In this document: one piece after another, positions 1-52,735 of the stretch
How the letters are laid out: every line of letters begins with the position of its first letter
Position numbering within the stretch: the first letter of the stretch is position 1
Source: an uncultured Bacteroidia bacterium
GTDB lineage: Bacteria > Bacteroidota > Bacteroidia > JAIBAJ01
Length of the DNA stretch: 64,000 nt
NCBI GenBank assembly: GCA_965284645.1
Contig: OZ260106.1
Coordinates: forward strand, 342,992 to 406,991
Reading direction: 5' to 3'
Notes under the pieces: model-generated
Database searches by the model: none
Told to the model about the DNA's origin: nothing
The model's input: the letters and a program-made list of their open reading frames with translations, nothing else
Translations under genes and position numbers: made by a program

Positions 1-75
1 TAGTCAAATTGATTAATTTGGGTTTAATTAGGTCTACCCCCATTAAGTAGTTTTAATACGGAATTTGGTTGAAAC

Positions 76-112
76 AAAAAACGCCCTGTTCTTAGATAAG
101 TCAGGGCGTTTT
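76..112 (-). terminator. Rho-independent terminator downstream of the beta-helix lipoprotein gene
   Basis: Perfect hairpin AACGCCCTG..(13 nt)..CAGGGCGTT at 80-110. On the minus strand it is followed by TTTTTTGTTTC. It lies 20 bp past the stop of the 131..1357 gene. Confidence 0.55.
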
Positions 113-130
113 GATTCGAAAGCTATTGTT

Positions 131-1357
131 CTAATTTTTTGCCTCAGCGTTTGGTTTCTGAACGGGCTCCAAGGTACAATCAAACGATTTAATATCAGTT
201 GATACGTTTTTGAAATTGTTCGGACCGTCTACATTGGCAAATGTTGCTGCGCCATTGTTTTTGATACAAATTCTGTTTTCAGGAGCTACACCCGTTTTGG
301 CATTTACCACAGCCGGATCATAAAAACCATCAAAAATGATATCCGGAATATTTGCACCAAATACTCCTGCCAAAAGTTTCCCAATCATTCGGGAAGTATC
401 AGGCAATGCCTCTTGACGCTTAATTTCATTGTCGTGTATATAAACTGCATAGGTGTAAGGATTGTAAAGTGTATCGCTATACTCTTTTCCAGAGGTAAGG
501 AAAGACGCTACACAAATGCCTAATGTATTGTTGTTAATTACTTTATTGTTGGTCAATTCTACATTATTGTAGGCCATAACCAACATTCCCATTCCTGCTG
601 GAACCAAGGCAACTGTATTACCCGGAGGGCCAAAGTTGGCAAGGTTGTTCTCATGCACATTGTTGTTATGTACATATACATCGCGACCATTTTTTACTGG
701 AACTTCAGGCATATCAAATACCATAATTCCTCCAGTATTGTTATAGGCTTCGTTTTCATAAACATCGGCAGCTGTTGTATTTTCAATTTCAATTCCAGCT
801 ACATTTTCATGAACTTTATTATTGCGAACGATTACATTTTTAGATTGTCCCACATAAATTCCAGCATCCGAAGCCCCATACACATCGCAGTTTTCAATCA
901 AAACACCATCGCAAGTAACTGGATATAGTCCGTATGCACCATTCGTGGTTTTTGGTCCTTCTGTCCAACCGATTCTCACATTTCTTACCACAATGTTTTT
1001 TGAGTTCTGAATTTTAATGGCATCACCTTTGGCATCTTCTACAGCAAATCCTTCCAAAGTGCAATTATCGGCTTTGATGCCCAATCCTTGAGGACCTTCG
1101 CTTTGTTCTTTAAAACTTAAAATGGTTTTGTCAGGACCTTTTCCTTTTATGGTAATGTTTGCTATGCCCTCCATTGTCAAACCTTTGGTAAAGCTGAACT
1201 TCCCTTCAGGCAATTCAATGGTTTCACCAGGTTTGGCATTAATAAGTTTTTCTTGGATTTCTTTAAATATGGCTTCATCATTTGGTTTTGAAGTGCCGCA
1301 AGAAGAAATCTGGAACGCCATTAAAGCAGATCCAAAGACATAAAGGAGTTTTTTCAT
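131..1357 (-). CDS. Right-handed parallel beta-helix repeat lipoprotein (pectate-lyase-fold, PbH1 repeats)
   Basis: 408-aa ORF with a lipoprotein signal (MKKLLYVFGSALMAFQISSCG). It has repeated Asn-rich PbH1-type turns (NVRIGW.., NCDVYGASDAGIYV, NNKVHENVAGIEIENTT, NEAYNNTGGIMVF, NNNVHENN, NNKVINNNTLGI). Confidence 0.75.
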   Translation of the reverse strand: MKKLLYVFGSALMAFQISSCGTSKPNDEAIFKEIQEKLINAKPGETIELPEGKFSFTKGLTMEGIANITIKGKGPDKTILSFKEQSEGPQGLGIKADNCTLEGFAVEDAKGDAIKIQNSKNIVVRNVRIGWTEGPKTTNGAYGLYPVTCDGVLIENCDVYGASDAGIYVGQSKNVIVRNNKVHENVAGIEIENTTAADVYENEAYNNTGGIMVFDMPEVPVKNGRDVYVHNNNVHENNLANFGPPGNTVALVPAGMGMLVMAYNNVELTNNKVINNNTLGICVASFLTSGKEYSDTLYNPYTYAVYIHDNEIKRQEALPDTSRMIGKLLAGVFGANIPDIIFDGFYDPAVVNAKTGVAPENRICIKNNGAATFANVDGPNNFKNVSTDIKSFDCTLEPVQKPNAEAKN

Positions 1358-1427
1358 TTAGGGGGGTTAAATAGGTTGGACGAAAATAACTAAATTTATT
1401 TATCTACCAAACCTTATCCTAAATTCC

Positions 1428-2723
1428 TTATTTGCCTGTTTGCATGAGATCTTCGATATGCTCGGCTTCAATTGGTATTTGTTCCATCAAGTCGACAGGT
1501 TTTCCCAAAGTAACCAGGATATTATTCTCAATTCGGATTCCCAAATCCTCTTCCTGGATATAGATACCTGGCTCACAGGTAAAGACCATTCCCGGTTGAA
1601 TTGGCGCAAATCGATCCCCGATATCGTGCACATCCAATCCTAAGAAATGTCCAATCCCATGTGGATAATATTTGAAGTAGGCTGGCCTTTCCGGACTAGC
1701 ACTTTTAACATCATCCTGAGAAATAAGTCCTAAAACCAGCAATTCTTCCTGAATCATCAAACCAGCCGCTTTACGGAGGTCATCTAAACACTTTCCGGGC
1801 ACCATCAAATCTTTAATTTGTTTGTGTACCCGCAATACTGAATTATAAACATCCTTTTGTCGTTGGGTGAATTTACCATTTACTGGTATGCAACGCGTTA
1901 AATCTGCATTGTAATTGGCATAATTAGCACCAAAATCCATCAACAGGATATCGCCATCCTTACATGGTTTATTGTTTTCAATATAGTGCAGCACGCAAGC
2001 GCTTCCTCCCGATGCAATAATTGGCTCATAGGCATGGCCGGTAGCTCTGTTTCGAATAAATTCATGGATGATTTCCGCCTCCACTTCATATTCCATTACA
2101 CCCGGTTTCACAAAGTTCAAAACCCTTCGGAAAGCACTGTCCGTTATCGAAATAGCCTTTCTTAGCATATCTACCTCAATGGAAGATTTTATAGCACGCA
2201 ATTCGGCCATAATTGGTCCTGATCGATGGTACGAATGCAACGGAAATTTGGCTTTTAGCTCGTTAGCAAAACGGAGGTCTTTGTAGGGAACTGTCCAGCT
2301 CGACCGGTCGTTTTCATTCAGGTTGAGGTATACGTTTTCAGCATGGCAGAGCACATAATTCAAAACTGCTTCAAAACTTTCAACCCACATTACTTTTCGA
2401 ATACCCGAAGTTGCGGTTGCTTCAGGTTTGGTATATTTATGACCTTCCCAAGTGGCCAAATGCTCGTTTGTTTCTACTACAAACAACACTTCTCTATAAT
2501 CCGAATTGGGGCAATCAGGTGCGAGAATCAAGATGGATTTTTCCTGATCAATCCCTGTTAAATAAAAGAAATCACTGTTTTGGCGAAACGGATAAATGGC
2601 GTCACCATTCAGCGGCATTTGTTCATTGGAATGAAAAATGGCCACCGAGTTGGATTTCAGTTTGTTTTTATAACGTTGGCGATTTTCTAAAAATAAATCG
2701 TTCGGAAGTGCAGTATATTTCAT
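1428..2723 (-). CDS. pepP: Xaa-Pro aminopeptidase (M24B family, aminopeptidase P-like)
   Basis: 431 aa. The N-terminal AMP_N-like region is followed by the pita-bread catalytic domain, with metal ligand motifs DFGANYANYNADLTRC and HGIGHFLGLDVHD and a GMVFTCEPGIY.. E-containing tail. Confidence 0.85.
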   Translation of the reverse strand: MKYTALPNDLFLENRQRYKNKLKSNSVAIFHSNEQMPLNGDAIYPFRQNSDFFYLTGIDQEKSILILAPDCPNSDYREVLFVVETNEHLATWEGHKYTKPEATATSGIRKVMWVESFEAVLNYVLCHAENVYLNLNENDRSSWTVPYKDLRFANELKAKFPLHSYHRSGPIMAELRAIKSSIEVDMLRKAISITDSAFRRVLNFVKPGVMEYEVEAEIIHEFIRNRATGHAYEPIIASGGSACVLHYIENNKPCKDGDILLMDFGANYANYNADLTRCIPVNGKFTQRQKDVYNSVLRVHKQIKDLMVPGKCLDDLRKAAGLMIQEELLVLGLISQDDVKSASPERPAYFKYYPHGIGHFLGLDVHDIGDRFAPIQPGMVFTCEPGIYIQEEDLGIRIENNILVTLGKPVDLMEQIPIEAEHIEDLMQTGK

Positions 2724-2892
2724 GAGAATATTTGCCCAAAGATAAAAGTTTGGGCTGCAGATTTAACCTGAAAAACAAACAAGATAAAAACCCCGAAGAA
2801 GGGCTTGGTTATTCAATTTTTTCGAACGACCTAAATTACTCCTCTTTAATTTTTCGAGCTTTTTCTTTTATAAATGTTAAAATTAGGGAATC

Positions 2893-5793: not shown

Positions 5794-8700
5794 TTACCAT
5801 TTCGTTTCTCTGTCAAATAGCTCCTTCGATGCATTTTCTCCATTTTTGAAATAGTAAATACCACCCCAGTTCCATTTTACTTTTTGGTATTCATTTACAT
5901 TAGTGGGTCCGCGGTTTACCACTACCCGAGTTATGGTTTTATTAGTTTCTTGAATAATATCCTCGGATACCCCTTCAGGATACTTCTTGTAAAGCTCAGC
6001 CATGTAATCCGCCTTGGTTTTTGCAAGCGGTGCAACTGAAACTTGTCCATTTTTGGCTGAATACTCTGCCTCCAATTTTGCCCTTAGTTCTTTTTCTATT
6101 TCTGCTTGTTTGCTCAAGGCGTCCTGTTTGGCCATTTCCTTAGCCTTCTTTTCAAAATCCTTTTTGGCATGAAACTCGGTAGAAGCCTGCCACTGCTCTT
6201 CATTGCGTTTGAGTCGGGCCGCTTCCATTTCAGCCTTTTCTTTAGCACTCATTTCTTTATGCTCTGCTGCAAGTTTTGCAGCCTCGGCTTTGTTCAGTCT
6301 ATCCAACTCCATTTGCCTTTCTTTTTCAATGGAGGCAGCAGTTTTAGCCGAATCTCTCTTCTGCATATCAAAGGCTAACTGTTCTTCCCTCGTTCTTTTT
6401 TTAGCCTCCTTTTCGGCCGTTGCTTTTTCAAGAGAGGTTTGTTTTGCCTCGGTATTGGCAGTGAGCTGTGCTTGTCTTAAGGAATCTTTCTCGGCTTTGG
6501 TTTCTGTTCTGTATTCTTTAGTTTTTTCTTGCCATTGGGCTTTTGCTGCATCGTATTCCTGCTTTTGCTTTTCTTTAAAGGCGGTTTCAGCTGCTTTCAC
6601 CGAATCCCTTACAAAAGCTTCTCTGGCAAGTTGCGCCTCCCTTTTCTGTTGAAATTCCGCTTTATCTTGGTCTGCCTTTTCTTTCGACACTTGTTTTTGG
6701 TTGTTAAAAACCTCCACTTGGCTTGTTCGAGTGGCATCCTTTTCCTGCTTTTGCTTTTCCCTGTATTCAGTTGTCATTTGAGTTAAACTCTCTTTCTCCA
6801 ACTGATGGATTTCGGCTTGTTTCGCCTTTTGCTCCTTTACAGCAGTTTGCACCGAGTCTCTTATCCTCGCCTCTCTTGCCAATTGCTCTTCCCTATTTAA
6901 TTGTCTTTCAGTTTTTGTAGTGGTAGCAATCTCCAAAGACCTCTGCTTGTCCGATTCGAATTCAGCCTTTTGAGCATTTCGAAGGCTATCCTTATTTTGT
7001 TTTTGGGTTTCTCTGTAGTTTGCCGTTTGGTGAAGCAATTCTTCCTTTTTCCTTTGGTATTCTGCTAATCGCGACTCCTTTTCCTGTTGGGCTTTCTGTT
7101 TAGCGGCTTCCCTTTCGGCAGTTTCCTCTTCTAAGAGTTTGGCCTTTTTCTCCTCATTCATCTTGGCTTCCAACTCATTCCTTATTTTCCTTTCCAACTC
7201 CATTCTTAGCGCTTCTTCTGCCTTTCTGTTTTCTTCTGCGGTGGTACTTTCTACAAATACTTCTGCTTCTAGCGCTTGTCGATCTTGCCAAGCTTCATCA
7301 TTCTTTGCCTTTTTCTCCTTTTGTTGTTCTAAATATAGTTTCTCTTGTTCCTTTTCGGCCAACCTTCTATTTTCCGCTTCCTCCCTTGCTTTTTGCAGGG
7401 CAAGGCGTTTTGCTTCTTCTTCCTGTCTTTTCTTTTCTTCGGCTTGAACCTTTCTTTGTTGGGCCTCTTCAAAGGCCTTTTGTTGTTTTTGACGTAATTC
7501 TTCTTCTGCACTTATGGCTGCTTTCTGCATCACCACTACATCTTGGGAGTGTGATTTGGCATCTGCTTCTTGTTTTGCCCTTTCCGAAGCTTCTTCTTTG
7601 GCCTTTTGTTGGGCCTTCATTTTCATTTCTATTTCAATTGCCTTTCTCTCTGCTTCTTGGGCAGCCCTTTGGTCGGCTTCTTCGGCTCCTTGTTGTTGGG
7701 CCAAAAGTGCCTTTTCCCTCTCTGCTTTGGCCTTGTTTTCAGCAGCAGTTCGGGCATCTTCTTCCGCCTTAGCTTGGGCTGCAGCCATACTTTTACGCCT
7801 TTCCTCCTCTTGTGCAATTTTTTCAGCTTGAGCCTTTGCAGAAACCTCTGCCGCTAGGCGCTTTTCTTCCTCTGCTTGGGCTAAGGCGGCGGCTATGGCA
7901 TTTTTCTTGGCTTCTTCTTGCGCTTTTTTGTCGGCCTCTGCCTTGGCCTTTGTCTCAGCTGCCATTCGTTTTTCTTCTTCGGCTTTTACCTTTGCTTCGG
8001 CTTCTGCCTTTTGCTTGTTTTCGGAAGCAATACGTTTATCCTCTTCGGCCTTAGCTTGGGCAGCAGCAATTGCCTTTTTCTTCGCCTCTTCTTGGGCTTT
8101 CTTTTCACTTTCGGCTTTTGATTGTGCCTCGGCAGCCAATCGTTTTTCCTCCTCTGCTTTGGCCTTTGCTTCTGCCTCTGCTTTCATTTTATTTTCTGCC
8201 GCAATCCGCTTATCTTCTTCTTCCTTCGCCTGTGCCGCTGCAATGGCTTTTTTCTTTGCTTCCTCCTTAGCCTTCTTTTCTGCTTCAGCTTGTGCCTCAG
8301 CTTCTGCTGCTAAACGTTTTTGTTCTTCAACCTTGGCTTTGGCCTCTGCTTCTGCCTTGGCTTTGGCTTCTGCGGCTATTCTTTTCTCTTCCTCCAATTT
8401 TGCTTTTGCCTCGGCTTCGGCCTTAGCTTTGGCTTCTGCGGCAATTCGAACGGCTTCTGCTTTGGCTTTGGCTTTTGCCTCAGCTTCAGCCTTGGCTTTC
8501 GCCTCAGCGGCCAAACGCTTTTCTTCTTCCGCTTTGGCTTTAGCTTCCGCCTCTGCTTTAGCTTTAGCCTCAGCAGCAATTCGAGCGGCCTCGGCCTTCG
8601 CCTTTGCTTCGGCTTCGGACTTTGCTTTCGCCTCGGCTTCGGCTTTTGCTTTGGCAGCTGCAGCCTCTTGCTTTTTAGCCTCTTCCATTGCCTTTTTTTC

Positions 8701-15980: not shown

Positions 15981-16036
15981 AACTTGGGCCTTTGGGGATT
16001 AAAGTCTTAGACTTGAATAATTGAAACCATAATAAA

Positions 16037-16829: not shown

Positions 16830-16995
16830 TAATCAAATTAATAAAGAGGAGATTTAATTATCCGAACTTTCTGATTTTGTTGAGTTCACCCCTACCAAAG
16901 AAATTTCGGTACAGCAGCCGTTTTCGATTTGGCCAAACAATTTGATTTACAACTGGTTAATCGATTATCCATTACTAATTCGTAATCTGGGTCTA
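16830..16995 (-). repeat. Degenerate family-2 AT-rich repeat copy (reverse orientation) just downstream of the RAYT-like gene
   Basis: ATTAATAAAGAGGAGATTTAATTATCCGAACTTTCTGA...CCAAAGAAATTTCGG...TTTGATTTACAACTGGTTAATCGATTATCCATTACTAATTCGTAATCTGGGT aligns to the reverse complement of the family-2 consensus (…TTTACAACTGGTTAATCGTTTATGCATTTCTAATGCGTAATCTGGGTT) with many substitutions and indels. Confidence 0.6.
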
Positions 16996-17045
16996 TAACA
17001 GCCAGTCTAAGACTGGCAAAACCCAAATGACAAGTTAAAAACTTG

Positions 17046-21413: not shown

Positions 21414-21573
21414 AGCTAGAATTTTGAGGGGGCAAAGGTAATGGAAAAGAAAGTAGGCCCATGAAGAATCAAGACTGGGAAATGGAAATTTTAAACCGAC
21501 TATTTTTGGGGAAAGGAACAGTCCAAAATCAAAGGACTAGCTTTCGAATGTAGTTGCATTTGATTGGATAGAA

Positions 21574-23881: not shown

Positions 23882-24046
23882 CCCAGATTACGCATTAGAA
23901 ATGCATAAAGGATTAACCAGTTGTAAATCAATTTGTATAGCCAAATTGACAACAACTGCTATCCCGAAATTTCTTCGGGAGGGGTAAACCCAACTAAATC
24001 AAGTAGTTCGGATTAATAAATCCTCCTATTGATTAATTTGGGTTTA
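23882..24046 (+). repeat. Family-2 AT-rich about 165-bp MITE-like repeat
   Basis: CCCAGATTACGCATTAGAAATGCATAAAGGATTAACCAGTTGTAAATCAATTTGTATAGCCAAATTGACAACAACTGCTATCCCGAAATTTCTTCGGGAGGGGTAAACCCAACTAAATCAAGTAGTTCGGATTAATAAATCCTCCTATTGATTAATTTGGGTT matches copies at 46012 and 52567 at above 95% identity. The termini are imperfect inverted repeats (AACCCAGATTA..CATTAG / CTATTGATTAATTTGGGTT). Confidence 0.85.
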
Positions 24047-41068: not shown

Positions 41069-41247
41069 ATAGCCAAGTTTAACCATATTCTGCCCGTGAA
41101 AGACCAAAACATTCAAGAAGTTGTCAATCAAGCTAAACCCAACAAATGCAAGCAGGTCAATTCTCTTGGGAATTTTACAGACGATTTCTTTGTTCATCAA
41201 TGCTTTACAAAAACGAATTGGTTTAGAAGTACATTTTTGAATATTAG

Positions 41248-41465
41248 TTTTTGGCGGGCCCCCAACCGCCATAACCATTCTACCGCTGTTTAAGCCTTTA
41301 CAAGGGCGGTTGGGTCAGGCTTTCGCTAATACTCCTCAGCCTGTAGCCCCCTAAAATGCATGGGGCTGCAGGCTTGCGGGGTATCACGCTCTATCCTTGC
41401 CCGACACCTCCGCATAACCTTGTACTGAAGCTGGGCCTTTGCATTTCACCCCAGTGTGGTCAAAT
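41248..41465 (+). repeat. Family-1 GC-rich repeat, short copy D (single arm with internal hairpin)
   Basis: TTTTGGCGGGCCCCCAACCGCCATAACCATTCTACC...GGCGGTTGGGTCAGGCTTTCGCTAATACTCCTCAGCCTGTAGCCCCCTAAAATGCATGGGGCTGCAGGCTTGCGGGGTATCACGCTCTATCCTTGCCCGA... The first 120 bp align to copies F and A. The internal inverted repeat is GCCTGTAGCCCC / GGGGCTGCAGGC. Confidence 0.75.
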
Positions 41466-41495
41466 GGAAAGACAAATACAACTAACCCCCAATTA

Positions 41496-41650
41496 ACCCA
41501 AATTAATCAATAGGAGGATTTAATAATCCGAACTACTTGATTTAGTTGGGTTTAACCCGATTTAGCAGTTGTTATCAATTTGGCCATACAAATTGATTTA
41601 CAACTGGTTAATCGTTTACTCATTTCTAATGCGTAATCTGGGATTAACCC
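41496..41650 (-). repeat. Family-2 AT-rich repeat (reverse orientation), first of a tandem pair
   Basis: AACCCAAATTAATCAATAGGAGGATTTAATAATCCGAACTACTTGATTTAGTTGGGTTTAACCCGATTTAGCAGTTGTTATCAATTTGGCCATACAAATTGATTTACAACTGGTTAATCGTTTACTCATTTCTAATGCGTAATCTGGG is the reverse complement of the family-2 consensus. It lacks the CCCGAAATTTCTTCGGG hairpin segment. Confidence 0.8.
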
Positions 41651-41815
41651 AAAATAATCAATAGCAGGATTTAATAATCCGAACTACTTGATTTAGTTGG
41701 GTTTAACCCTCCCGAAGAAATTTTTGGATAGCAGTTTTTATCAATTTGGAAAAAAAATTTATTTACAACTGGTTAACCGTTTATGCATTTCCATTGCATA
41801 ATCTGGGATTAACCC
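41647..41815 (-). repeat. Family-2 AT-rich repeat (reverse orientation), second of a tandem pair sharing the AACCC junction
   Basis: AACCCAAAATAATCAATAGCAGGATTTAATAATCCGAACTACTTGATTTAGTTGGGTTTAACCCTCCCGAAGAAATTTTTGGATAGCAGTTTTTATCAATTTGG...TTTACAACTGGTTAACCGTTTATGCATTTCCATTGCATAATCTGGGATTAACCCC. It overlaps the preceding copy by the 3-4-bp terminal AACC(C). Confidence 0.8.
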
Positions 41816-41896
41816 CAATAAAAAATGTGAGCGCTCTTTAGAAATTTGGGTTAAAAAAATCCAAAATTCATACTAGTCTTCTCTGCCTTTGGATTC

Positions 41897-43708: not shown

Positions 43709-43806
43709 ACCCTCCAAAATCGGACAAGTTTTAGCGCCCGATTATCTTTATTTGTGTTTTATGGGATAAACTTTACTTTTGCCCTCCTTCACAAAAATCC
43801 GCTTAC

Positions 43807-45849
43807 ATGAAATTGGAAAAAACTCTTGGACTAGCTGCGCTGTCGAGCTTGGTTCTTTTTTATTCGTTTACCCCAGACGGCAAAGACAAAAAAACCAACA
43901 AAGCCATTGATTTGGCAAACATGGATAAATCCGTTCGTCCTCAGGATGATTTCTACGAATTTGCCAATGGAGGATGGTTAAAAAACAACCCCGTTCCTTC
44001 TACAGAAAGCAAATGGGGAAGCTTTTCTGCCCTTTTAGAAGAAAACCAAACCCGACTAAAAGGCATCTTGGAAGAAAACACCCAAAAGGCCAATGCTCCC
44101 GGTTCAAACGGACAAAAAATCGGTGATTATTATTTCACCTATATGGATTCGGCTAAGAAAAATAAAGAAGGGGTTAAACCTCTTACCCGCTTTTTGCAAC
44201 AGGTAGAAGAAATTAAATCCAACGACCAACTGATGGCCTATTTCGCTACTACCCAAATGAAAGGGGTGAAAGGTCTTTGGTCTTTCTATGTTTATGCCGA
44301 CCCAAAAAGTTCCAGCGTAAATATTGCCCAAGCCAACCAAGGCGGATTGGGAATGCCCGATCGCGATTACTACCTTCGTAACGACCCAGATTCCAAATCA
44401 CTTCAAGAGAAATACAAACAACTTTTAGTGAAAGATTTTGAATTGCTAGGCGATTCCAAAGAAAAAGCCGTTGCCAATGCAGATAAGGTTTATAACCTAG
44501 AAGTAGAACTGGCAAAATCATCCATGACCAACGTAGAATTGCGTGACTTGGAAAAACAATACAACAAATGGAACCTTGCCGAACTTGATGCCAAATACCC
44601 AAACATTAAATTCTCCAACTACCTAAAAGCCATAGGCTTGGGCGGAGCAAAGGAAGTTATCATCGGACAGCCTGAATTCTTCCAAAAAGCCAACGATCTT
44701 TTAATTTCCCAAAGTTTAGACAATTGGAAAGCCTATTTGCGTTGGAATATTATCACTTCGTTTTCTGATCAATTGAGCGACGAAGTTGCCCAAGTAAATT
44801 TCGATTTCTATGGCACAGCACTTTCCGGACAAAAGAAAATGAAACCAAGATGGAAACGAGCCATTTCTGAAGTTGACCAAATGATGGGCGAAGCACTCGG
44901 ACAATTGTTCGTTGCTAAATATTTCCCAGAAGAGTCCAAAAAGAAAGTGGATGAAATGGTAAACAACCTTATCACTGCATACCGTGAACGTATCAATGGT
45001 TTGGATTGGATGAGCGCAGAAACAAAAGAAAAGGCTCAAAAGAAACTCAATACCATCATTAAAAAACTGGGATATCCTGACACTTGGAGAGATTATAGCA
45101 AACTGACTATTGGCCGCAATTCCCACTTTGAAAACTATGTAAATGCAGTGGAATTCGAAATCAGACATAACTACGAAAAACTGCCCAAACCAGTTGACAA
45201 AATGGAATGGTTGATGAGCCCTCCTACGGTAAATGCCTATTACAACCCAACTAGCAACGAAATTACATTTCCTGCAGGTATTATGCAGCCTCCTTTCTAC
45301 TTTTCCGGAGCAGACGATGCCGTAAACTATGCCGCTATTGGTGCCGTAATCGGACATGAATTGACCCATGGTTTTGACGACCAAGGTTCCCAATTTGATG
45401 AGGAAGGAAATATGAAAGATTGGTGGACAGCCTCTGATAAAGAGAAGTTTTTATCCAAAACCAAAATGGTGGTTGAACAATTCAACGGCTATGTAGCTAT
45501 CGACACCTTGCACATCAATGGTGAACTTACCTTGGGTGAAAACATTGCCGACTTAGGCGGTTTATCCATTTCTTACGCAGCATTCCAAAAAACAGCCCAA
45601 GCCAAAGAAGGCAAAGCCATCGATGGATTTACACCTAACCAACGCTTTTTCATTAGCTGGGCCCAAATCTGGAGAACCAATTTTACACCAGCTGCCATGA
45701 AAAAACAGGTGAATACCAATCCACACTCCCCAGGAAAATTCAGAGGCAATGGACCTTTGACCAACCTTCCGGAGTTTTATGAAGCCTTCGGTGTGAAAGA
45801 AGGTGATAAAATGTGGGTGGCACCTGAAAAACGCGCCAAAATCTGGTAA
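43807..45849 (+). CDS. M13-family zinc metalloendopeptidase (neprilysin/PepO-like), secreted
   Basis: 680 aa. Shows a signal or lipoprotein-like N-terminus, HExxH as VIGHELTHGFDDQG, a downstream E in ..GENIADLGG.. and the typical M13 C-terminus ..PEFYEAFGV..W. The length matches PepO. Confidence 0.85.
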   Translation: MKLEKTLGLAALSSLVLFYSFTPDGKDKKTNKAIDLANMDKSVRPQDDFYEFANGGWLKNNPVPSTESKWGSFSALLEENQTRLKGILEENTQKANAPGSNGQKIGDYYFTYMDSAKKNKEGVKPLTRFLQQVEEIKSNDQLMAYFATTQMKGVKGLWSFYVYADPKSSSVNIAQANQGGLGMPDRDYYLRNDPDSKSLQEKYKQLLVKDFELLGDSKEKAVANADKVYNLEVELAKSSMTNVELRDLEKQYNKWNLAELDAKYPNIKFSNYLKAIGLGGAKEVIIGQPEFFQKANDLLISQSLDNWKAYLRWNIITSFSDQLSDEVAQVNFDFYGTALSGQKKMKPRWKRAISEVDQMMGEALGQLFVAKYFPEESKKKVDEMVNNLITAYRERINGLDWMSAETKEKAQKKLNTIIKKLGYPDTWRDYSKLTIGRNSHFENYVNAVEFEIRHNYEKLPKPVDKMEWLMSPPTVNAYYNPTSNEITFPAGIMQPPFYFSGADDAVNYAAIGAVIGHELTHGFDDQGSQFDEEGNMKDWWTASDKEKFLSKTKMVVEQFNGYVAIDTLHINGELTLGENIADLGGLSISYAAFQKTAQAKEGKAIDGFTPNQRFFISWAQIWRTNFTPAAMKKQVNTNPHSPGKFRGNGPLTNLPEFYEAFGVKEGDKMWVAPEKRAKIW

Positions 45850-45867
45850 GCAAGCTATCCTTTCTAA

Positions 45868-45917
45868 AAAAACCCGAGTCTACCTCCAAACATGGTAAAC
45901 TCGGGTTTTTTATTTTG
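45868..45917 (+). terminator. Rho-independent terminator of the M13 peptidase gene
   Basis: AACCCGAGT-(20 nt)-ACTCGGGTT hairpin followed by TTTTTATTTT, about 20 bp after the stop. Confidence 0.6.
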
Positions 45918-45934
45918 GGAAAGGCTTGAATTTA

Positions 45935-46017
45935 ACCCAGAATCCGCATTAGAATTGCCTAACGATTTTGTAGTTTGAAGTAGTAAATTCTTCTATTGTA
46001 AATTTTAGGTTGAACCC
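45935..46017 (+). repeat. Miniature (about 85-bp) relative of the family-2/3 repeats
   Basis: AACCCAGAATCCGCATTAGAATTGCCTAACGATTTTGTAGTTTGAAGTAGTAAATTCTTCTATTGTAAATTTTAGGTTGAACCC. The ends resemble the shared TIR (AACCCAGA-T-CGCATTAGAA / ..TTAGGTTGAACCC). It sits immediately before a full family-2 copy. Confidence 0.55.
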
Positions 46018-46182
46018 AGATTACGCATTAGAAATGCATAAACGATTAACCAGTTGTAAATCAATTTGTATGGCCAAATTGATAACAACTGCTATCCCGA
46101 AATTTCTTCGGGAGGGGTAAACCCAACTAAATCAAGTAGTTCGGATTAATAAATCCTCCTATTGATTAATTTGGGTTGAAAT
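46012..46182 (+). repeat. Family-2 AT-rich about 170-bp MITE-like repeat
   Basis: It is near-identical to 23882-24046 and 52567-52735 (AACCCAGATTACGCATTAGAAATGCATAAACGATTAACCAGTTGTAAATCAATTTGTATGGCCAAATTGATAACAACTGCTATCCCGAAATTTCTTCGGGAGGGGTAAACCC...CCTCCTATTGATTAATTTGGGTT). Confidence 0.9.
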
Positions 46183-46237
46183 GAAAAACTTCTCTGCAAC
46201 CAGACATGGAAAACTGCAGCCCAATTTACAATTAAAA

Positions 46238-46475
46238 CCCAGGCACGGAGACCATCGGGCAACGATAGAGGCAGTGTAGCCCACAAGGCTGTGCAGGGCG
46301 GCACCATTTGGTAAAACCAGAACAAGGTGTAAAAGTTCATTTACAAAGAAAAAAAGGGAAATGGGTGAGGTGCCGCCCTGCACAGACTGAGGACTACCGC
46401 CGAAAGCGTGACCCGGCCGCCTGGCACACTCTTTTTTTCTTGGTACAATGGTTTTGGGCGGACGGGGGCCCGCCT
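46238..46475 (-). repeat. Family-1 GC-rich repeat, copy E (reverse orientation, about 240 bp, internal hairpin)
   Basis: The right end GGGGGCCCGCCTA is the reverse complement of TAGGCGGGCCCCC. It contains GGACTACCGCCGAAAGCGTGACCCGGCCGCC (cf. copy A GGACTAGCGCCGAAAGCCTGACCCGACGCC) and an internal inverted repeat CTGTGCAGGGCGGCACC / GGTGCCGCCCTGCACAG around an AT-rich loop. It ends about 15 bp before the S41 peptidase ORF boundary. Confidence 0.75.
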
Positions 46476-46490
46476 AAGCATCCCTCAACA

Positions 46491-48221
46491 CTATCCCTTC
46501 TTTTTTCCTTTGCTTTGGAAGTCTTTTACCTTGTCTTTTAATGGAGAATTGTCGGTTACGTCGCTTAATTTGCTTTTGTAAAGGCTAGGATTTTCCAATA
46601 TTTTTAGTGCTTCTTTGATTTCGGGATCGTCCTTTAACATGCTCTCTACCCGTCCTTTGCTGTAATAATACCGGCTCAGAATCTCGCTTTTTAGTAACTC
46701 GGTAATTTCAGTTCTGAAGAGCACCAAATCCTTTTCCTTATTGGGCGATAGCTTTTTCGAAATCTCTTCAAATTCCTTTTTGATACCTTCGAAGTACTTT
46801 TCCTTTTCGGCTGTTTCTTTCAAGACTTTCAAATCCAACTCACTTTGACTTTCGTAAGTAAAATCTTGCTTTTTGACAAAATCCGTAAACTGCTGGTACA
46901 ACTCGTCGGTAACCACAAAATCGCGGGGAGCAGGAACGGTTTTATGGTTTTGGCAATACAAGGTAGCAAAATCAAAAACAACGCTTTTGTCGATCAAAGC
47001 CTTTGAAATTTCGGAATAATACTCGGGCTCCAATTTCACATCAGGGGTAATTCCACCCCCATCGTACACTGGCCTTTTGTTTTTCAGGGTGTAAAAACGA
47101 GAAATAAGAGAATCGGGAATTTTACCCACGGAGCCATCTTCGTTGCGGTTTCCATAATCAATTGCTTGTATGCAGCGACCGCTTGGAATGTAATATTTGG
47201 CAGTGGTAACTTTGAGCTGGGTGTTGTAGCTTAATGGACGCGTAGTTTGCACCAATCCTTTGCCATAGGTGCGCTGCCCAACCACAACGGCCCTGTCTAA
47301 ATCTTGGAAAGTGCCCGATACAATTTCAGAGGCAGAAGCAGAACCGCTGTTGACCAAAACTACCAATGGAATTTCGGTGTCGATGGGATTTCCTTGGGTT
47401 TTGTAGGTGGCATTCCATTCCTGAACTTTTCCTTTGGTAAACACAACCGTTTGGCCTTTTTCAATAAACAGGTTGCATAAATTTACCGCCTCTTTAAGCA
47501 GTCCACCGGGATTGCCTCGAAGGTCGAGTACCAAGCCTTCCAGCTTATTCCCAGCTTTTAGCTGTTGATAGGCTTCTTTGATTTCGCCAGAGCAGTTGTC
47601 GGTAAAGGAGGTTAAATTGATATAACCCACTTTACTGTCGAGCATACCGGAATAAGGAACAGCTTTTACTTTAATTTCCTCCCGACTCACGTTAAAATTC
47701 AACTTTCCGCTTTGTCCGGGTCTTTCAACCGAAATTTTCACATCGGTACCGGGTTGGCCTTTTAATACGGAACTGATATCGTCGTAGGACCGGCCCTCCG
47801 TGCTTTTTCCATTCACCTCCAAAAGGATATCGCCGGCCTTTAATCCTGCTTTGGCAGCGGGTGAATTTTCGTAAGGCTCGGCAATAATTACTTTGTTGTC
47901 TTTGGCCCGAATAATGGCACCTATTCCACCATATTGTCCGGTGGTCATAAAACGGTAATCTTCAATATCGCTTTCGGCAATGAAATTGGTGTAGGGGTCT
48001 AAACCTTCCAACATGGCATCAATGCCGTTTTTCATCAAATCGCCAGCATTGGTTTCATCCACATAGTACAGGTTCAATTCCTTAAACAGAGTGGTGAAAA
48101 TGTCGAGGTTTTTAGAAATTTCGAAATATTGGTCGTCAATCTTGGCAGCCGAAATAAAAACAAGCGGCAAGGCTAAGGCGCCGAGCAACCAAATTTTGGT
48201 GTTGTAAAGGAATTTTTTCAT
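46491..48221 (-). CDS. S41-family C-terminal processing (tail-specific) peptidase
   Basis: Starts at Met11 (MKKFLYNTKIWLLGALALPLVFISAA signal). Shows a PDZ domain (GLKAGDILLEVNGKS), a catalytic Ser region LVVLVNSGSASASEIVSG and a Lys further downstream (..TYGKGLVQ). About 576 aa. Confidence 0.85.
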   Translation of the reverse strand: MKKFLYNTKIWLLGALALPLVFISAAKIDDQYFEISKNLDIFTTLFKELNLYYVDETNAGDLMKNGIDAMLEGLDPYTNFIAESDIEDYRFMTTGQYGGIGAIIRAKDNKVIIAEPYENSPAAKAGLKAGDILLEVNGKSTEGRSYDDISSVLKGQPGTDVKISVERPGQSGKLNFNVSREEIKVKAVPYSGMLDSKVGYINLTSFTDNCSGEIKEAYQQLKAGNKLEGLVLDLRGNPGGLLKEAVNLCNLFIEKGQTVVFTKGKVQEWNATYKTQGNPIDTEIPLVVLVNSGSASASEIVSGTFQDLDRAVVVGQRTYGKGLVQTTRPLSYNTQLKVTTAKYYIPSGRCIQAIDYGNRNEDGSVGKIPDSLISRFYTLKNKRPVYDGGGITPDVKLEPEYYSEISKALIDKSVVFDFATLYCQNHKTVPAPRDFVVTDELYQQFTDFVKKQDFTYESQSELDLKVLKETAEKEKYFEGIKKEFEEISKKLSPNKEKDLVLFRTEITELLKSEILSRYYYSKGRVESMLKDDPEIKEALKILENPSLYKSKLSDVTDNSPLKDKVKDFQSKGKKKG

Positions 48222-48593
48222 GCAATAGGATTCCGAATGGCGAAAATACAAATTATACCGATGGTATTGGAGAAATAGTCCAATTGTCCATTTAGAGAAT
48301 TAGCCTTAAAATGGCCGATAGTACAAGGGTATAATACCAATTTTAATTTATAAATAGTCCAAAGGCTATTTGTAAATTTAGATTGGTAAATGCCGAGGAT
48401 ACAGTATGTTAGTCCAACTTTTTCTAAAAAATGTGAGCCTAAAATTGGACTGTACATAATGTCCATTCGGTATAATTTCATTTTTCAATAACAAATCATT
48501 GGATAAACTGGGTTTTCTCTTTTTGTGAATTCGGTAAAGAGAACGGTAAAAACGAATGGTTTGGTGCCAAAACTTAAAAATTGACATATTTTA

Positions 48594-48776
48594 ACCCAGA
48601 TTACGCATTAGAAATCGTAATGAAGCTTTCAAATGCAATAAAGACGAGGGTTTCAGGTTAATTTTTGGGTGAAGGAATAGTAAACTATTTTGAAGTCAAA
48701 AATTGTTCTGAAATCCTTGTATTTGAAGCAGTTGAAAGCTGTAATAGATTTCTAATGCTGAATTTGGGTTTAACCC
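48594..48776 (+). repeat. Family-3 AT-rich about 183-bp MITE-like repeat (same TIR as family 2, different interior)
   Basis: AACCCAGATTACGCATTAGAAATCGTAATGAAGCTTTCAAATGCAATAAAGACGAGGGTTTCAGGTTAATTTTTGGGTGAAGGAATAGTAAACTATTTTGAAGTCAAAAATTGTTCTGAAATCCTTGTATTTGAAGCAGTTGAAAGCTGTAATAGATTTCTAATGCTGAATTTGGGTTTAACCC. Shows a perfect-ish TIR ATTTCTAATGC. It is about 96% identical to 52272-52455. Confidence 0.9.
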
Positions 48777-49002
48777 TACATCGCAAGTTGAAGCGAAGTA
48801 AAGAAGGGCAAATGGCTTGTCTCCGAACTTAGGCAAAGACCTATTTTCACCTTCCCAATTCCATGAAATTGCACTAGTCTTGAAACAAGGTTCAAAATTT
48901 CCAGCGAAGCTTTCAGATTTTTACCAAAGCATAAAATCCTAATCCCGCAACGTGAGCGGAAAATAGCTTCCATTTGCTACCCTTCTTTTCCCTAATCCGT
49001 CA

Positions 49003-50628
49003 TTAAAGGGCTACTTGGCACCTTTTCAGATCCAACATATTCAGTGGATTGTTGGAAAGCGATTTGACTCGTTTGTTCAGAAACCTTAAAGATTCATCAT
49101 AAAACAACACAACCATGGGTGCTTCAGCCAAAGCTAGACTGTCCATTTTTGAATACATGGCCTCTCTATTCGCCTCCGAAATGGTTTGCATACTTTGGTC
49201 ATACCAGGCATCAAAGGTGGCATTGGCATACAGGGTATAGTTTGGACCGTTGGGGGTAAAATTTTTAGAATAAAGCAAACTCAGGTAATTCTCGGCATCA
49301 GGATAATCGGCTACCCACGATTTACGGAAAAAGGGGGCCTGACCTTTCGCTACTATTTCTCCATGGGTGCCGGGTGGATTTACTTCCAAACTAGCTTTTA
49401 TTCCAATCGCCTCCAATTCATGTTGTATAAACTCGCATAAATCGGCATATTGGGCGGTAATAAACAGTTTAACCGGAACCGGATTTTTGAGATAACCCGA
49501 TTTTTCTAATAATTCCTTGGCCAATCGAGGATCATAGGTATAACCTTTCACCCTATTCTCTGCTGATTTGTACAATGAAGGTGGCACCAAGCCCTGCTCA
49601 CCCGGTATACCAATATTGTTGCGGAGGTAGTGGATCATTTTTCTTCTATCCAAGGCATAGTTGACGGCCTTACGGAAATTTGGGTTTGTAACCGGACTAT
49701 TAATCACCGCACTGGCCGTATCCGAAACCAAAAAGCCCAGGTACTCAGTGTTTAGAAAGGCCGATCGTTTGAGGTAGATTTTATCGGTCAATTCCTGCTT
49801 CAATTGTCCCGACCGGGTAAGTATGGCATCTTTGTAACTACCATCATCCAAGCCGTTTAGCATATCTGTACGTCCTTGTACAAAAGCCATAAACGAGGAT
49901 TGGGCATCGCTGATGAAACTCACCGAAACGGCATCCAAATACGGAAGGCGCAACCCTTTTTCATCGAGCTCAAAATAATGGGGATTTTTGTGCACCACCA
50001 GTTTAATACCTTCTTTCCAAATAAAAAATTGGAATGGTCCTGTTCCTACTGGGTGCATCCTGAAATCATTTCCATACATTTCAATAGCCTCATGCGGAAC
50101 CACGGAGCAATAGTGCATGGCCAACATCCCCAAAAAAGGAGGAAAGGCCTGCTTCAAACTAATCACCAGTTCGGTGTCAGAAACAGCCTTAAATGCATCT
50201 TCAGAAGGTTGGGAAACATTGGCAAAAACCCATTTCCCGGGCGAGGCAACCTGGGCATCTAAAATCCGACGGAAGGAATACACAAAATCCTGGGCAACAA
50301 CAGTTCGGGAGCTGTCTTTACCAAAGCAAGGATCTACATGAAAGCGAACATCCTTTCTCAAAAAGAAACGGTAGGTTTTTCCATCTGCACTGATGGTCCA
50401 GCGCTTGGCAATGGCCGCTTGTATGTTTAATTGACTATCCAATTGCACCAGCCCGTTAAACAACAGGTTAATTCCCCAGGTATTGGACATGCTTCGGGCA
50501 AAAGCCGGATCCAAGGAGGTTATTCCTTTGGGTTCGTTATACCGAAATATTTTCTTATCGGCATGGGTTTTCCTTTCCCCGCAGGAAATCAAAAAAAGCA
50601 ATCCGGTAAGCAAGATTAATGCACGCAT
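49003..50628 (-). CDS. ABC-transporter substrate-binding lipoprotein, family 5 (peptide/nickel-binding, OppA/DppA-like); no cognate permease genes nearby
   Basis: 541 aa. Has a lipoprotein signal (LLFLISCGERK) and family-5 SBP features (..YNEPKGITSLDPA.., ..GTGPFQF.., ..W.ADYPD..). Confidence 0.75.
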   Translation of the reverse strand: MRALILLTGLLFLISCGERKTHADKKIFRYNEPKGITSLDPAFARSMSNTWGINLLFNGLVQLDSQLNIQAAIAKRWTISADGKTYRFFLRKDVRFHVDPCFGKDSSRTVVAQDFVYSFRRILDAQVASPGKWVFANVSQPSEDAFKAVSDTELVISLKQAFPPFLGMLAMHYCSVVPHEAIEMYGNDFRMHPVGTGPFQFFIWKEGIKLVVHKNPHYFELDEKGLRLPYLDAVSVSFISDAQSSFMAFVQGRTDMLNGLDDGSYKDAILTRSGQLKQELTDKIYLKRSAFLNTEYLGFLVSDTASAVINSPVTNPNFRKAVNYALDRRKMIHYLRNNIGIPGEQGLVPPSLYKSAENRVKGYTYDPRLAKELLEKSGYLKNPVPVKLFITAQYADLCEFIQHELEAIGIKASLEVNPPGTHGEIVAKGQAPFFRKSWVADYPDAENYLSLLYSKNFTPNGPNYTLYANATFDAWYDQSMQTISEANREAMYSKMDSLALAEAPMVVLFYDESLRFLNKRVKSLSNNPLNMLDLKRCQVAL

Positions 50629-50702
50629 CGCGACAAAAATACAGGGAAGTCCCTACCTTTGTTCACTAAGATTCATCAACTAATGAGGTCTTTTTTCAAC
50701 TA

Positions 50703-52100
50703 TTGCTTATGCGCCTACTTTTAATTGCTTCCCTTTGTTTTTGTTTCGAAACGGTTTTTTCCCAGGTTTACGATTCGCAAAATGTAAATCTGTTGGGGCA
50801 TTGGGACGATTCCACGGTTGTTCCTGAACCCCAGCTGGGTATTCGTTACAATGGCTGTTTTGGCTGGGAAAACCCCAACGATGGCCGCCGCTATGCCATC
50901 ATAGGCTCCTCTCGCTCCACCCATGTTATCGAGGTTACCAACCCCAATCAGCCTGTTTTTCGTTGGGAAATAATTGGTTCCCGCATCAATTGCATTTGGC
51001 GCGAAATCAAAACCTTTGGCAAATATGTGTATATCGTTAGCGACGATGGCTATCCCAACCGCTTTCAAATTGCCGATTTAAGCTATTTACCCGATTCGGT
51101 TCATTTGGTAATGGATTCGGATAGCATTTTCGCCCGCACCCATACCATTTTCATTGATGGCAACAAACTTTACTGCGCCAGTGTACATTCAGCTGGGCAA
51201 AATGGTAGCTATTCGGCCATGAATGTGTATTCCTTGGCCAATCCCGAAAAACCACTTTTGCTGCGCCGTTTGGATCAAGACTATCAATCTATCAGCCAAG
51301 TCCACGATATGTGGGTACGCAACGACACCATTTTTGCTTCCTCTGCTTATCAAGGCCTAAGTATACTCACTTTTGATACAATTCAAAACAGGTTCAACCT
51401 AGTCTCTACCCTAACCGTTTACGACAATGCGGGCTACAACCACAGCAGCACTTGGTCGAAAGATGGAAAAACCCTGGTAATGATGGACGAGGTTCCGAAT
51501 AGTTTGCCTGCCAAGGTGGTCAATGTGTCGGATATCACTCAACCCTACGTTACCGCCTATTTTAACAGTTCCGATTCTACTACACCCCACAACCCTTATT
51601 TCATTGGCGATTCGAAAATTTTTGTAGGCGCACACTACGAAGATGGCACCCAGATTTACGATGTATCCAACGAAAACAATCCGGTTCGTCTCGGCTATTT
51701 CGATACACATTGGCAAACCACGCCCGCAACTAATACAGGCGATTACCGCGGCAATTGGGGTTCCTATGTGGATTTCGGTGGCGGATTGGTTATCTCCGGC
51801 GATATGCAAAACGGCCTGTTTGTCCTGGATATTAGTCCCAGTTTAACCGGTATCGAACAGCGCATTCCCCAGCAGGCAAAGGTGTGGCCCCTCCCTTCCA
51901 AATCCCTGGTTTTCATTGATCCGGTATTGGCACAAACCTGCACAACTTGGACCTTGGAAAATACGTTCGGACAGGTGGTTAAATCGGGACAATTTATTAG
52001 CAATCAAGGACTTACTATTCAAGAATTGGCCAGTGGATTTTATCATCTATCTATTCGCACGGCTAGTCAAGAGTACGTTCTGAAGGTGGTCAAAGAATAG
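50703..52100 (+). CDS. Choice-of-anchor-B (LVIVD-repeat beta-propeller-like) protein with T9SS C-terminal sorting domain
   Basis: 465 aa. Has a signal peptide and the N-terminal YDSQNVNLLGHWDD... plus repeated beta-propeller-like blades. The C-terminal about 80 aa (VWPLPSKSLVFIDPVL....GFYHLSIRTASQEYVLKVVKE) is T9SS CTD-like. Confidence 0.65.
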   Translation: MLMRLLLIASLCFCFETVFSQVYDSQNVNLLGHWDDSTVVPEPQLGIRYNGCFGWENPNDGRRYAIIGSSRSTHVIEVTNPNQPVFRWEIIGSRINCIWREIKTFGKYVYIVSDDGYPNRFQIADLSYLPDSVHLVMDSDSIFARTHTIFIDGNKLYCASVHSAGQNGSYSAMNVYSLANPEKPLLLRRLDQDYQSISQVHDMWVRNDTIFASSAYQGLSILTFDTIQNRFNLVSTLTVYDNAGYNHSSTWSKDGKTLVMMDEVPNSLPAKVVNVSDITQPYVTAYFNSSDSTTPHNPYFIGDSKIFVGAHYEDGTQIYDVSNENNPVRLGYFDTHWQTTPATNTGDYRGNWGSYVDFGGGLVISGDMQNGLFVLDISPSLTGIEQRIPQQAKVWPLPSKSLVFIDPVLAQTCTTWTLENTFGQVVKSGQFISNQGLTIQELASGFYHLSIRTASQEYVLKVVKE

Positions 52101-52270
52101 TTTATTTTGGCGGGCCCCCAACCGCAAATACCGCTTCCTACGTCTATTATAGTTGGTGCATGGCGGTTGGGTCAGGCTTTCGGCGCTAGTCCTCGGTCTG
52201 CTCCGTTCCTCCGCATCCCTGTGGGCTAGACTGCCTCTATCCTTGCCCGAAGGCCTCCGTGCCCGGCTTT
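52101..52270 (+). repeat. Family-1 GC-rich repeat, short copy F (about 170 bp)
   Basis: TTTTGGCGGGCCCCCAACCGCAAATACCGC...GGCGGTTGGGTCAGGCTTTCGGCGCTAGTCCTCGGTCTGCTCCGTTCCTCCGCATCCCTGTGGGCTAGACTGCCTCTATCCTTGCCCGAAGGCC... It starts exactly at the stop of the upstream gene and is the reverse complement of copy A's right arm. Confidence 0.85.
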
Positions 52271-52271
52271 T

Positions 52272-52455
52272 AACCCAGATTACGCATTAGAAATCGTAAT
52301 GAAGCTTTCAAATGCAATAAAGACGAGGGTTTCAGGTTAATTTTTGGGTGAAGGAATAGTAAACTATTTTGAATGCAAAAATTGTTTTTAAATCCTTGTA
52401 TTTGAAGCAGTTGGAAGCTGTAATAGATTTCTAATGCTGAATCTGGGTTTAACGG
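52272..52455 (+). repeat. Family-3 AT-rich repeat
   Basis: AACCCAGATTACGCATTAGAAATCGTAATGAAGC...ATTTCTAATGCTGAATCTGGGTTTAAC. It is a near-identical copy of 48594-48776 and directly abuts family-1 copy F. Confidence 0.9.
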
Positions 52456-52527
52456 TATATTGAGCAGGTGCTTTCCATGTCCGGTTGTAGAATAATTTTT
52501 TCCTATACCCTAAATAAATCAGCTAGG

Positions 52528-52570
52528 AAAAATTGAATAATCCGAACTACTTGAATGGCTTGGTTTAAAC
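52528..52570 (-). repeat. Fragment of a family-2 repeat (reverse orientation)
   Basis: AATAATCCGAACTACTTGA...GGTTTAAACCC is the reverse complement of the TCAAGTAGTTCGGATTATT segment of family 2. It joins the next full copy at AAACCC. Confidence 0.45.
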
Positions 52571-52735
52571 CCAAATTAAGCATTAGAAATGCATAAACGA
52601 TTAACCAGTTGTAAATCAATTTGTATGGCCAAATTGATAACAACTGCTATCCCGAAATTTCTTCGGGAGGGGTAAACCCAACTAAATCAAGTAGTTCGGA
52701 TTAATAAATCCTCCTATTGATTAATTTGGGTTAAA
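52567..52735 (+). repeat. Family-2 AT-rich repeat, ending inside or at the stop codon of the giant adhesin gene
   Basis: AACCCAAATTAAGCATTAGAAATGCATAAACGATTAACCAGTTGTAAATCAATTTGTATGGCCAAATTGATAACAACTGCTATCCCGAAATTTCTTCGGGAGGGGTAAACCC...CCTCCTATTGATTAATTTGGGTTAAAG. The element's last bases overlap the TAA of the 52731..>64000 gene. Confidence 0.9.

Follow-up and report, generated by a model that had tools for sequence, protein, structure and literature searches.

Two families of short repeats in a Bacteroidia genome, probably miniature elements with the ends of an IS1380-family insertion sequence

This study concerns two families of short, dispersed repeats in a stretch of 64,000 nucleotides from an uncultured Bacteroidia bacterium (assembly GCA_965284645.1, contig OZ260106.1, positions 342,992 to 406,991 of the forward strand). 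We call this whole stretch the window; the search of the source genome covered these 64 kb alone. The two families, labeled family 2 and family 3 in an earlier, sequence-only reading, share the terminus CCCAGATTACGCATTAGAAAT. A combination of direct-repeat search, sequence reading and profile search yields 11 elements, complete or partial, with this terminus, where no match is expected by chance. In order along the window, they are:

1..22, + strand: family 2, a right end truncated at the window start, ...CAAATTGATTAATTTGGG, with TTTAA after it
16834..16991, - strand: family 2, old and degenerate, with decayed ends and no intact target duplication; nhmmer E-value 1.2e-35
23882..24042, + strand: family 2, 161 nt, duplication TTTAT at 23877-23881 and 24043-24047; between convergent genes
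41497..41642, - strand: family 2, 146-nt variant without the CCCGAAATTTCTTCGGG (CCCGAA) hairpin; duplication ATTAA
41648..41810, - strand: family 2, diverged (~90% identical), inside the ATTAA duplication of the adjoining copy
45936..46009, + strand: family-2 derivative, 74 nt, internally deleted and degenerate, flanked by TTTAA and TTGAA
46015..46175, + strand: family 2, 161 nt, duplication TTGAA at 46010-46014 and 46176-46180
48595..48768, + strand: family 3, 174 nt, foldback near-palindrome, duplication TTTAA; empty site in the relative L139, described below
52274..52447, + strand: family 3, 174 nt, duplication TTTAA; empty site in L139
52507..52564, - strand: family 2 fragment, right half of an older copy, adjoining the insertion point of the next copy
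52570..52730, + strand: family 2, 161 nt, duplication TTAAA at 52565-52569 and 52731-52735

The repeats and their target sites

Both families are real, as the sequence-only reading had claimed: the terminal 23-mer AACCCAGATTACGCATTAGAAAT has 10 matches with at most 3 mismatches in the window, versus none in 100 shuffles. The copy that was thought possible at the window start is indeed the right end of a family-2 element, the degenerate and partial copies can now be delimited at 16834-16991 and 52507-52564, and the miniature variant near position 45935 is an internally deleted derivative, of 74 nt rather than about 85 bp. All copies in the window are intergenic, the majority between convergent genes, and no open reading frame (ORF) of 100 or more amino acids overlaps any of them; the intact elements are 146-174 nt long and non-coding.

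The claimed within-family identity above 95% must be restricted to the younger copies. It holds for the three + strand copies of family 2 (96.9-98.8% mutual identity), for the family-3 pair (96.6%) and for the 146-nt variant at 41497-41642, which is 95.2-97.3% identical to that trio over ungapped columns, with a 15-nt deletion in addition. It fails for 41648-41810 and 16834-16991, which are only 78-91% identical to the remaining family-2 copies (78-85% for 16834-16991 taken alone). The shared terminal inverted repeat also stands in part. Family 3 has terminal repeats of 21-23 nt with 2-3 mismatches. In family 2 the repeat is complete on the left but weak on the right, where only TAATTTGGG, about 9-11 nt, is shared with the terminus.

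All seven intact copies in the window have perfect 5-bp target-site duplications: TTTAT for the copy at 23882, TTGAA at 46015, TTAAA at 52570, TTTAA for both family-3 copies, and ATTAA for both copies of the doublet at 41.5 kb. These duplications correct the exact ends first given to the elements, which run from CCC to GGG; the flanking AA and TT belong to the duplicated target, as can be read at 23882, where TTTAT stands on both sides. They also replace the AACCC that abutting copies were thought to share: the actual shared unit is the duplication, ATTAA at 41643-41647 and TTGAA at 46010-46014. Around the doublet, ATTAA is found three times (41492-41496, 41643-41647 and 41811-41815); TTGAA separates the 74-nt derivative from the copy at 46015. 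Copies thus abut because one inserted into the duplicated target of its neighbor. At 52570-52730, the right duplicate includes the TAA stop codon of the SprB-repeat gene at 52731-63998 (- strand).

Target-site duplications had been proposed as a check, and they extend to other genomes. Taking the window together with 103 loci of other genomes, a perfect 5-bp duplication flanks 37 of 54 delimited elements, versus 0 of 54 in an offset control. A logo of the five bases that precede 112 left ends (T 73%, T 96%, A/T, A 95%, A 84%) gives the AT-rich consensus TTWAA. An alternative model, with a 4-bp TTAA duplication and elements of the form A-CCC...GGG-T, was rejected: the duplications TTTAT and TTGAA fit the 5-bp model alone.

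Evidence of mobility comes from L139, a JGI metagenome contig with about 87% nucleotide identity to the window and syntenic with its positions 33203-56552. The first family-3 site is empty in this relative, which reads TTGACATTTTTTAACCCTAAATTG where the window has TTGACATATTTTAA, the family-3 element and TTTAACCCTACATCG; at the second site, L139 is collinear with the window once the element and one TTTAA are removed. Over 22 kb, it contains no copy of either family, versus eight or nine in the window. Since the younger copies are nearly identical and the relative has none, the comparison indicates a recent burst of copies in the lineage of the window. In a second relative, the metagenome-assembled genome (MAG) GCA_019695265.1 (L140), the same M13 peptidase gene is followed by a family-2 copy that is older, shortened and oppositely oriented.

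Other genomes and an IS1380-family partner

A genome collection was scanned with the degenerate 21-mer CCCARATTNNGCATTAGAAAT, which matches at least 103 loci in other genomes, so that the further copies anticipated by the sequence-only reading do exist, in large numbers. Carriers among the matches listed are Flavobacterium, other Flavobacteriales, Chitinophagaceae, Saprospiraceae, Pedobacter, Sediminibacterium and Bacteroidales MAGs, and among these same matches the motif nearly always stands directly after TTTAA or TTAAA, with differing interiors downstream. Clustered by interior, 58 delimited elements fall into 9 groups, hence at least nine unrelated interiors under one terminus. The ends that were not selected by the search pattern still conserve 17 nt, CCCARATTMNGCAWTAG. 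One family-2 copy, in a Sediminibacterium MAG (L019), is 97-99% identical to the three + strand copies of the window. When families 2 and 3 were compared by blastn with a plasmid collection, no relevant match was obtained.

Elements with the same terminus and TTWAA-like flanks were also observed on contigs of 1.2-1.4 Mb (L003, L011, L056, L071) of a MAG labeled Pseudomonadales, and single loci with this terminus carry the labels Campylobacteraceae, Ignavibacteria, Pyrinomonadaceae and Akkermansia. Either the superfamily crossed phyla or these bins are mislabeled.

None of the 103 listed genome loci has a transposase inside its element; the adjacent ORFs are housekeeping genes. The path to an autonomous partner is a fragment found by tblastn with the transposase of ISEcp1, an insertion sequence (IS) of the IS1380 family. 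It lies on L034, a contig of a MAG labeled Flavobacteriales that begins inside the 3' end of the IS: the first 125 nt read in frame ...KKRRSWFDGLWNYAKIFEFPFVISNA-stop, with the stop codon within ATT TCT AAT GCG TAA TCT GGG. Since this stop lies inside the terminal repeat, the conserved terminus serves at the same time as the 3' end of a transposase gene. A homology search with the fragment returned a sister lineage alone, with C-termini SLRN and SLTG, and no full-length protein.

A DNA pattern was then designed that joins the codons of W-F/Y...L with the terminal repeat. It retrieves 34 metagenome loci, many of them at contig ends; eight contain a full-length transposase ORF, and six are delimited at both ends. 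The IS ranges in size from 1.40 to 1.47 kb and its ends read CCCAGATT... One copy of 1403 bp (L118) carries the terminus of the window elements at both ends, with 21 of 21 nt matching. Copies of 1413 bp (L109) and 1462 bp (L136) are flanked on both sides by TTTAA and TTTAT, respectively, so the 5-bp duplication is seen for the partner IS itself. L128, L134 and L137 are likewise delimited at both ends, L113 and L120 have a full-length ORF and a left end CCGAG instead of CCCAG, and L141 to L144 are four further copies, of 1402 bp.

The IS carries a single ORF of about 440 amino acids, whose C-terminus ...ISNA and stop (ATT TCT AAT GCG TAA) lie inside the right terminal repeat. Its product matches NF033539, the NCBIfam model of IS1380-family transposases, scoring 265.4 bits where the cutoff is 180 and aligning residues 5-411 with positions 2-416 of the 419 in the profile; it also matches PF13701 (181 bits) and PF01609. 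An AlphaFold model of the protein (pLDDT 70, pTM 0.72) has Tn5 as its closest solved fold (E 3e-9), followed by piggyBac 6x67 (E 2e-6), piggyBat and ISCth4; at the level of sequence, no solved structure matches the transposase. The left end of the IS carries the motif three times: the terminal repeat comes first, an inverted copy follows about 25 nt further in, and a direct copy immediately precedes the start codon. The terminal repeat and the inverted copy pair into a 16-bp hairpin. The ORF, the ends and the duplications at L109 and L136 fit the features of the IS1380 family in ISfinder, namely a single ORF, short inverted repeats starting with CC and a target duplication of 4-5 bp. The lineage is abundant in metagenomes, with 3098 clusters at E <=1e-40, mostly on contigs of 1.4-2 kb. 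One copy, on a 345-kb contig, lies two genes from a Por_Secre_tail (type IX secretion) gene, which fits a Bacteroidota host.

Contig L034 also contains, at 208-891, a second, truncated IS1380-family transposase gene of the sister lineage, whose product ends in ...FPLSLRN. This gene, 83 nt away from the end of the main IS, has a diverged right end, ATTAAATTCTACTGTCTATTTGCGG, with TTTAA after it; all of its protein-database relatives are fragments of at most 325 amino acids.

We conclude that families 2 and 3 are, with high probability, MITEs (miniature inverted-repeat transposable elements) that bear the ends of this 1.40-1.47-kb IS and were mobilised in trans. They are short and non-coding, with inverted repeats, 5-bp duplications, dispersed copies, the ends of an autonomous IS and, for family 3 alone, insertion polymorphism. 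The earlier proposal of two MITE families with one terminal sequence, moved in trans by one transposase, is thus supported by the duplications, the empty sites, an IS with identical 21-bp ends and at least nine unrelated interiors. The opposite outcome that it had considered, fragments of a known IS with an intact transposase nearby, is not what we find: the window contains no transposase of this kind, and the interiors are not end fragments of the IS.

Several observations weigh against this conclusion. The right end of family 2 matches the IS terminus over about 9-11 nt alone, and it is from target duplications that we infer the mobilisation of this family by an IS1380 transposase. No empty site for a family-2 copy could be aligned in L139, because the surrounding intergenic DNA differs. 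In a tblastn search of the 64-kb window and the loci of relatives and other genomes with the transposases of ISEcp1 and of the new IS, the L034 fragment is the only match. Finally, on short metagenome contigs the flanks of several full-length IS copies differ from each other (TTAAA...TTTAA), probably through the assembly of multi-copy repeats or through recombination.

Assuming that the elements are MITEs, the transposase would be supplied in trans, by a full-length copy elsewhere in the genome or by one acquired transiently. It would bind the outer 17-21 bp or so of the element (CCCARATTMNGCAWTAG); the two ends would be paired, and the element excised, then inserted at TTWAA with 5-bp staggered cuts. 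Excision would probably involve hairpin intermediates, by analogy with Tn5 and piggyBac, the enzymes closest in structure. This chemistry of paired-end cleavage, hairpins and staggered integration is suggested by the duplications and by the fold relatives of a predicted structure. Insertion would regenerate the target on both sides, where new copies could land in the duplication of an older one and form abutting pairs. Since TTWAA includes TAA, and insertions elsewhere are presumably counter-selected, the preference would explain why copies are found at the 3' ends of genes and between convergent genes. The terminus may owe part of its conservation to the C-terminus of the transposase that it encodes, a constraint that would add to transposase binding.

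Could the copies be what is left, as solo ends or internal deletions, of a full-length IS that once stood at each site? The terminus is that of the IS, and partial copies do occur, at 1-22, 45936-46009 and 52507-52564. However, the same non-IS interior is found at different loci with 97-99% identity within a family, the same architectures recur in other genomes, and independent decay would be unable to produce identical short elements. A comparison of the interiors of both families with the IS revealed no similarity beyond the terminal repeat, and on that ground their derivation from deleted IS ends was rejected. We consider this decay scenario extremely unlikely.

The window does contain a gene that resembles a REP-associated tyrosine transposase (RAYT), and with it a different conceivable source of mobility:

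16037-16639, + strand: RAYT-like ORF, 200 amino acids, NF047646 78.8 bits (cutoff 80), PF01797 26 bits

The elements could then be of the REP/BIME or PATE kind, moved by a Y1 (IS200/RAYT-type) transposase such as this one, whose gene is separated by 195 nt from the degenerate copy of family 2; hairpins, moreover, abound in the elements. But Y1 transposases are not known to duplicate their target; they insert beside a fixed tetra- or pentanucleotide, and their elements have subterminal hairpins in place of terminal inverted repeats. The duplications seen here are 5 bp long and variable in sequence, the inverted repeats are true ones and identical to those of a DDE-type IS, and the palindromes beside the RAYT-like gene (CAAGTTWAAAACTTG) bear no relation to the MITEs. 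The probability that we would assign to a Y1 origin is close to nil. These near-identical palindromes, CAAGTTTAAAACTTG and CAAGTTAAAAACTTG, flank the RAYT-like gene at 15972-15986 and 17031-17045 and are found nowhere else in the window; the decayed family-2 copy lies between the gene and the second of them.

Folding and covariation

Family 3 matches its own reverse complement and folds back into one long hairpin with two arms of about 87 nt (-40 kcal/mol, z-score -10.8). Family 2 forms four local hairpins (z-score -6.8), so that the internal stem-loops noticed in the sequence are borne out by folding. The right end of family 2 can pair with an internal segment of the element, the pseudo-repeat CCCAACTAAATCAAGTAG.

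Ten family-2-like elements, from at least five assemblies labeled Chitinophagaceae, Bacteroidales and unclassified Bacteroidia or Bacteroidota, align to a common architecture. On this alignment, RNAalifold predicts 36 pairs, of which 11 show compensatory changes. In the named structure, 92.5% of cells are paired, versus 83.2% in shuffles (none of 500 shuffles reaches it), and the covariation score is 0.254, versus 0.093 in shuffles and 0.03-0.07 in slid controls. One covarying helix makes use of two free positions of the terminal repeat, TT-NN-GCAT-TAGAA-ATGC-N'N'-AA. The earlier suggestion of searching Rfam and testing the hairpins for co-variation thus gives a divided answer: the hairpins do co-vary in family-2-like elements, but they belong to no Rfam family. 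The covariance models of Rfam 15 have no match at gathering score over the window, and over 41000-53000 only chance-level matches, with E at least 0.25.

With such strong folds and a covariation above that of controls, it is legitimate to ask whether the repeats are genes of a multi-copy structured non-coding RNA, or of a cis-regulatory RNA, whose inverted ends are simply RNA helices. This, however, leaves unexplained the variable 5-bp duplications around each copy, the precise empty sites and a terminus that an IS has at both of its ends. Copies are found in either orientation and at the 3' ends of genes, and up to E 1 Rfam has no match beyond chance level. In the family-2-like helices, G.U and A.C exceptions are about equally frequent; no strand is therefore favored, and RNA structure and DNA structure are not told apart. 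Structure and mobility are compatible, and the RNA reading fails only as a substitute for MITEs; as such a substitute, it is very unlikely.

Returning to MITEs, the covariation itself could have three sources: selection on structure, a requirement that a single transposase fit both arms (helix 5), or template-switch correction of quasipalindromes. The first would make family-2-like elements more than passive MITEs, with three internal hairpins kept by compensatory substitutions under selection on a folded single strand. We regard this as a tentative idea, more doubtful than not. It might take the form of a DNA or RNA structure needed by the IS1380-type transposition machinery, with a parallel in the conserved hairpin and the threefold repeat that mark the left end of the autonomous IS. 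Alternatively, the hairpins might have been exapted by the host, for instance to stabilise RNA at 3' ends or as a terminator, brought to TAA stops by the preference for TTWAA.

Neighboring features and known systems

Three further kinds of features accompany the MITEs in the window. The first is the giant gene whose stop codon lies in a target duplication:

52731-63998, - strand: giant ORF of more than 3755 amino acids that runs off the window end, with 43 SprB repeats and a CHU_C type IX secretion signal

Its repeats are 228-nt units arranged in a 912-nt super-repeat, and its sequence features make it a predicted adhesin of the gliding-motility type. On the - strand at 5794-9276 lies another long ORF, of 1160 amino acids, made up mainly of low-complexity Lys/Ala/Glu repeats (GCTTTTGCCTCGGCTTC-type DNA) and no Pfam match. 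An exact-sequence look-up of three proteins of the window found no identical protein on record.

The second is a third family of repeats, about 100-170 nt long and rich in G+C, of the form TTTTGGCGGGCCCCC...GGGTCAGGCTTTCG...CTCTATCCTTGCCCGA:

13214-13311 (- strand), 21557-21720, 30475-30576, 41230-41400, 46290-46480 (- strand) and 52105-52262: G+C-rich repeat in the window
12356-12513 in L139; 4725-4880 and 5140-5310 in L140: G+C-rich repeat in the relatives

Several MITE insertions directly adjoin this repeat, which has no Rfam match, an unremarkable fold (z-score about -1.5) and, in one copy, an 80-nt insertion.

The third is a pair of intergenic segments, 21575-22018 and 30479-30948, each roughly 440 nt long, with about 90% identity between them. 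In both, the G+C-rich repeat precedes tracts of the heptamers CATAACT/CATATCT and CTCTTTT/CTCTCTT (21843-21941 and 30747-30866). A similar CT-rich tract stands alone at 26631-26750, and positions 6137-6294 of L019 are weakly similar to these segments.

Identifying the MITEs ties a repeat superfamily of many Bacteroidota genomes to an origin in IS1380 and supplies its exact limits, its target motif (TTWAA) and its autonomous partner. Such repeats fragment MAG assemblies, and many of the matches lie at contig ends; knowing their boundaries and origin can help annotation and assembly, and the repeats can be used as strain-level markers. A terminal repeat that doubles as the C-terminus and stop of the transposase is a candidate explanation for the conservation of 21 bp across orders. 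The preference for TTWAA puts copies on TAA stops, one of them exactly on that of the giant SprB adhesin gene, and could affect 3' untranslated regions and termination. For the little-studied mechanism of IS1380, modest but testable leads come from the compensatory hairpins and from ends and a target that resemble those of piggyBac.

Among known systems, ISEcp1 is the nearest relative that has been characterised. It has left repeat CCTAGATTCTACGT and makes 5-bp direct repeats (PMC6061673); both of its ends, CCTAGATTCTACGT and CCTAAATTCCACGT, were read in plasmid pC15-1a. ISEcp1 and the partner IS have ends that begin with CC and follow a common pattern, CCyArATTnnrCrT, and the target duplications of ISEcp1, the partner IS and the MITEs are all 5 bp long and AT-rich. 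ISEcp1 can move adjacent DNA by means of a right end that poorly matches its left end (PMC6061673), and family 2 likewise has a poorly matching right end. Unlike ISEcp1, the partner IS is shorter, at 1.40-1.47 kb, its ORF extends into the right repeat, its target is defined as the palindrome-like TTWAA, and the window contains non-autonomous derivatives only. The two transposases are only 28% identical.

The elements resemble other bacterial MITEs (Correia elements, MITECca01, those of a Bacteroidota census) in being short, non-coding, multi-copy and intergenic, with inverted repeats, target duplications and strong folds, and in having ends that match those of a parental IS. Correia elements of Neisseria duplicate TA. 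The MITECca01 element of Cardinium derives from IS982 (PMC9769881). What sets the present superfamily apart is one terminus over many unrelated interiors across several Bacteroidota orders, and a family-2-like architecture with compensatory changes. The automated census counts 81,380 MITEs in Bacteroidota but does not characterise them (PMC11602168), and copies of this superfamily are probably among them. The terminal sequence does not occur in the literature that was searched, and of the papers that name both IS1380 and MITEs, none, as far as titles and abstracts tell, concerns an IS1380-derived MITE. The elements thus seem to be an ordinary kind of mobile DNA, though of a superfamily not described before.

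The last comparison is with the piggyBac transposons of eukaryotes, which have CCC...GGG termini and extra subterminal copies of their repeats. The clade of the partner IS shares the CCC...GGG ends, the subterminal repeats, a TTAA-like target (here TTWAA) and the fold match to piggyBac noted above; it differs in its duplication, 5 bp here and 4 bp in piggyBac, and its transposase is structurally slightly closer to Tn5. The target of piggyBac is TTAA, and IS1380 transposases serve as its prokaryotic outgroup (PMC10813416). As a side reading, and without claiming membership in the piggyBac superfamily, this IS clade, with its CCC...GGG ends, TTWAA target and subterminal repeats, may be the closest prokaryotic counterpart of piggyBac.

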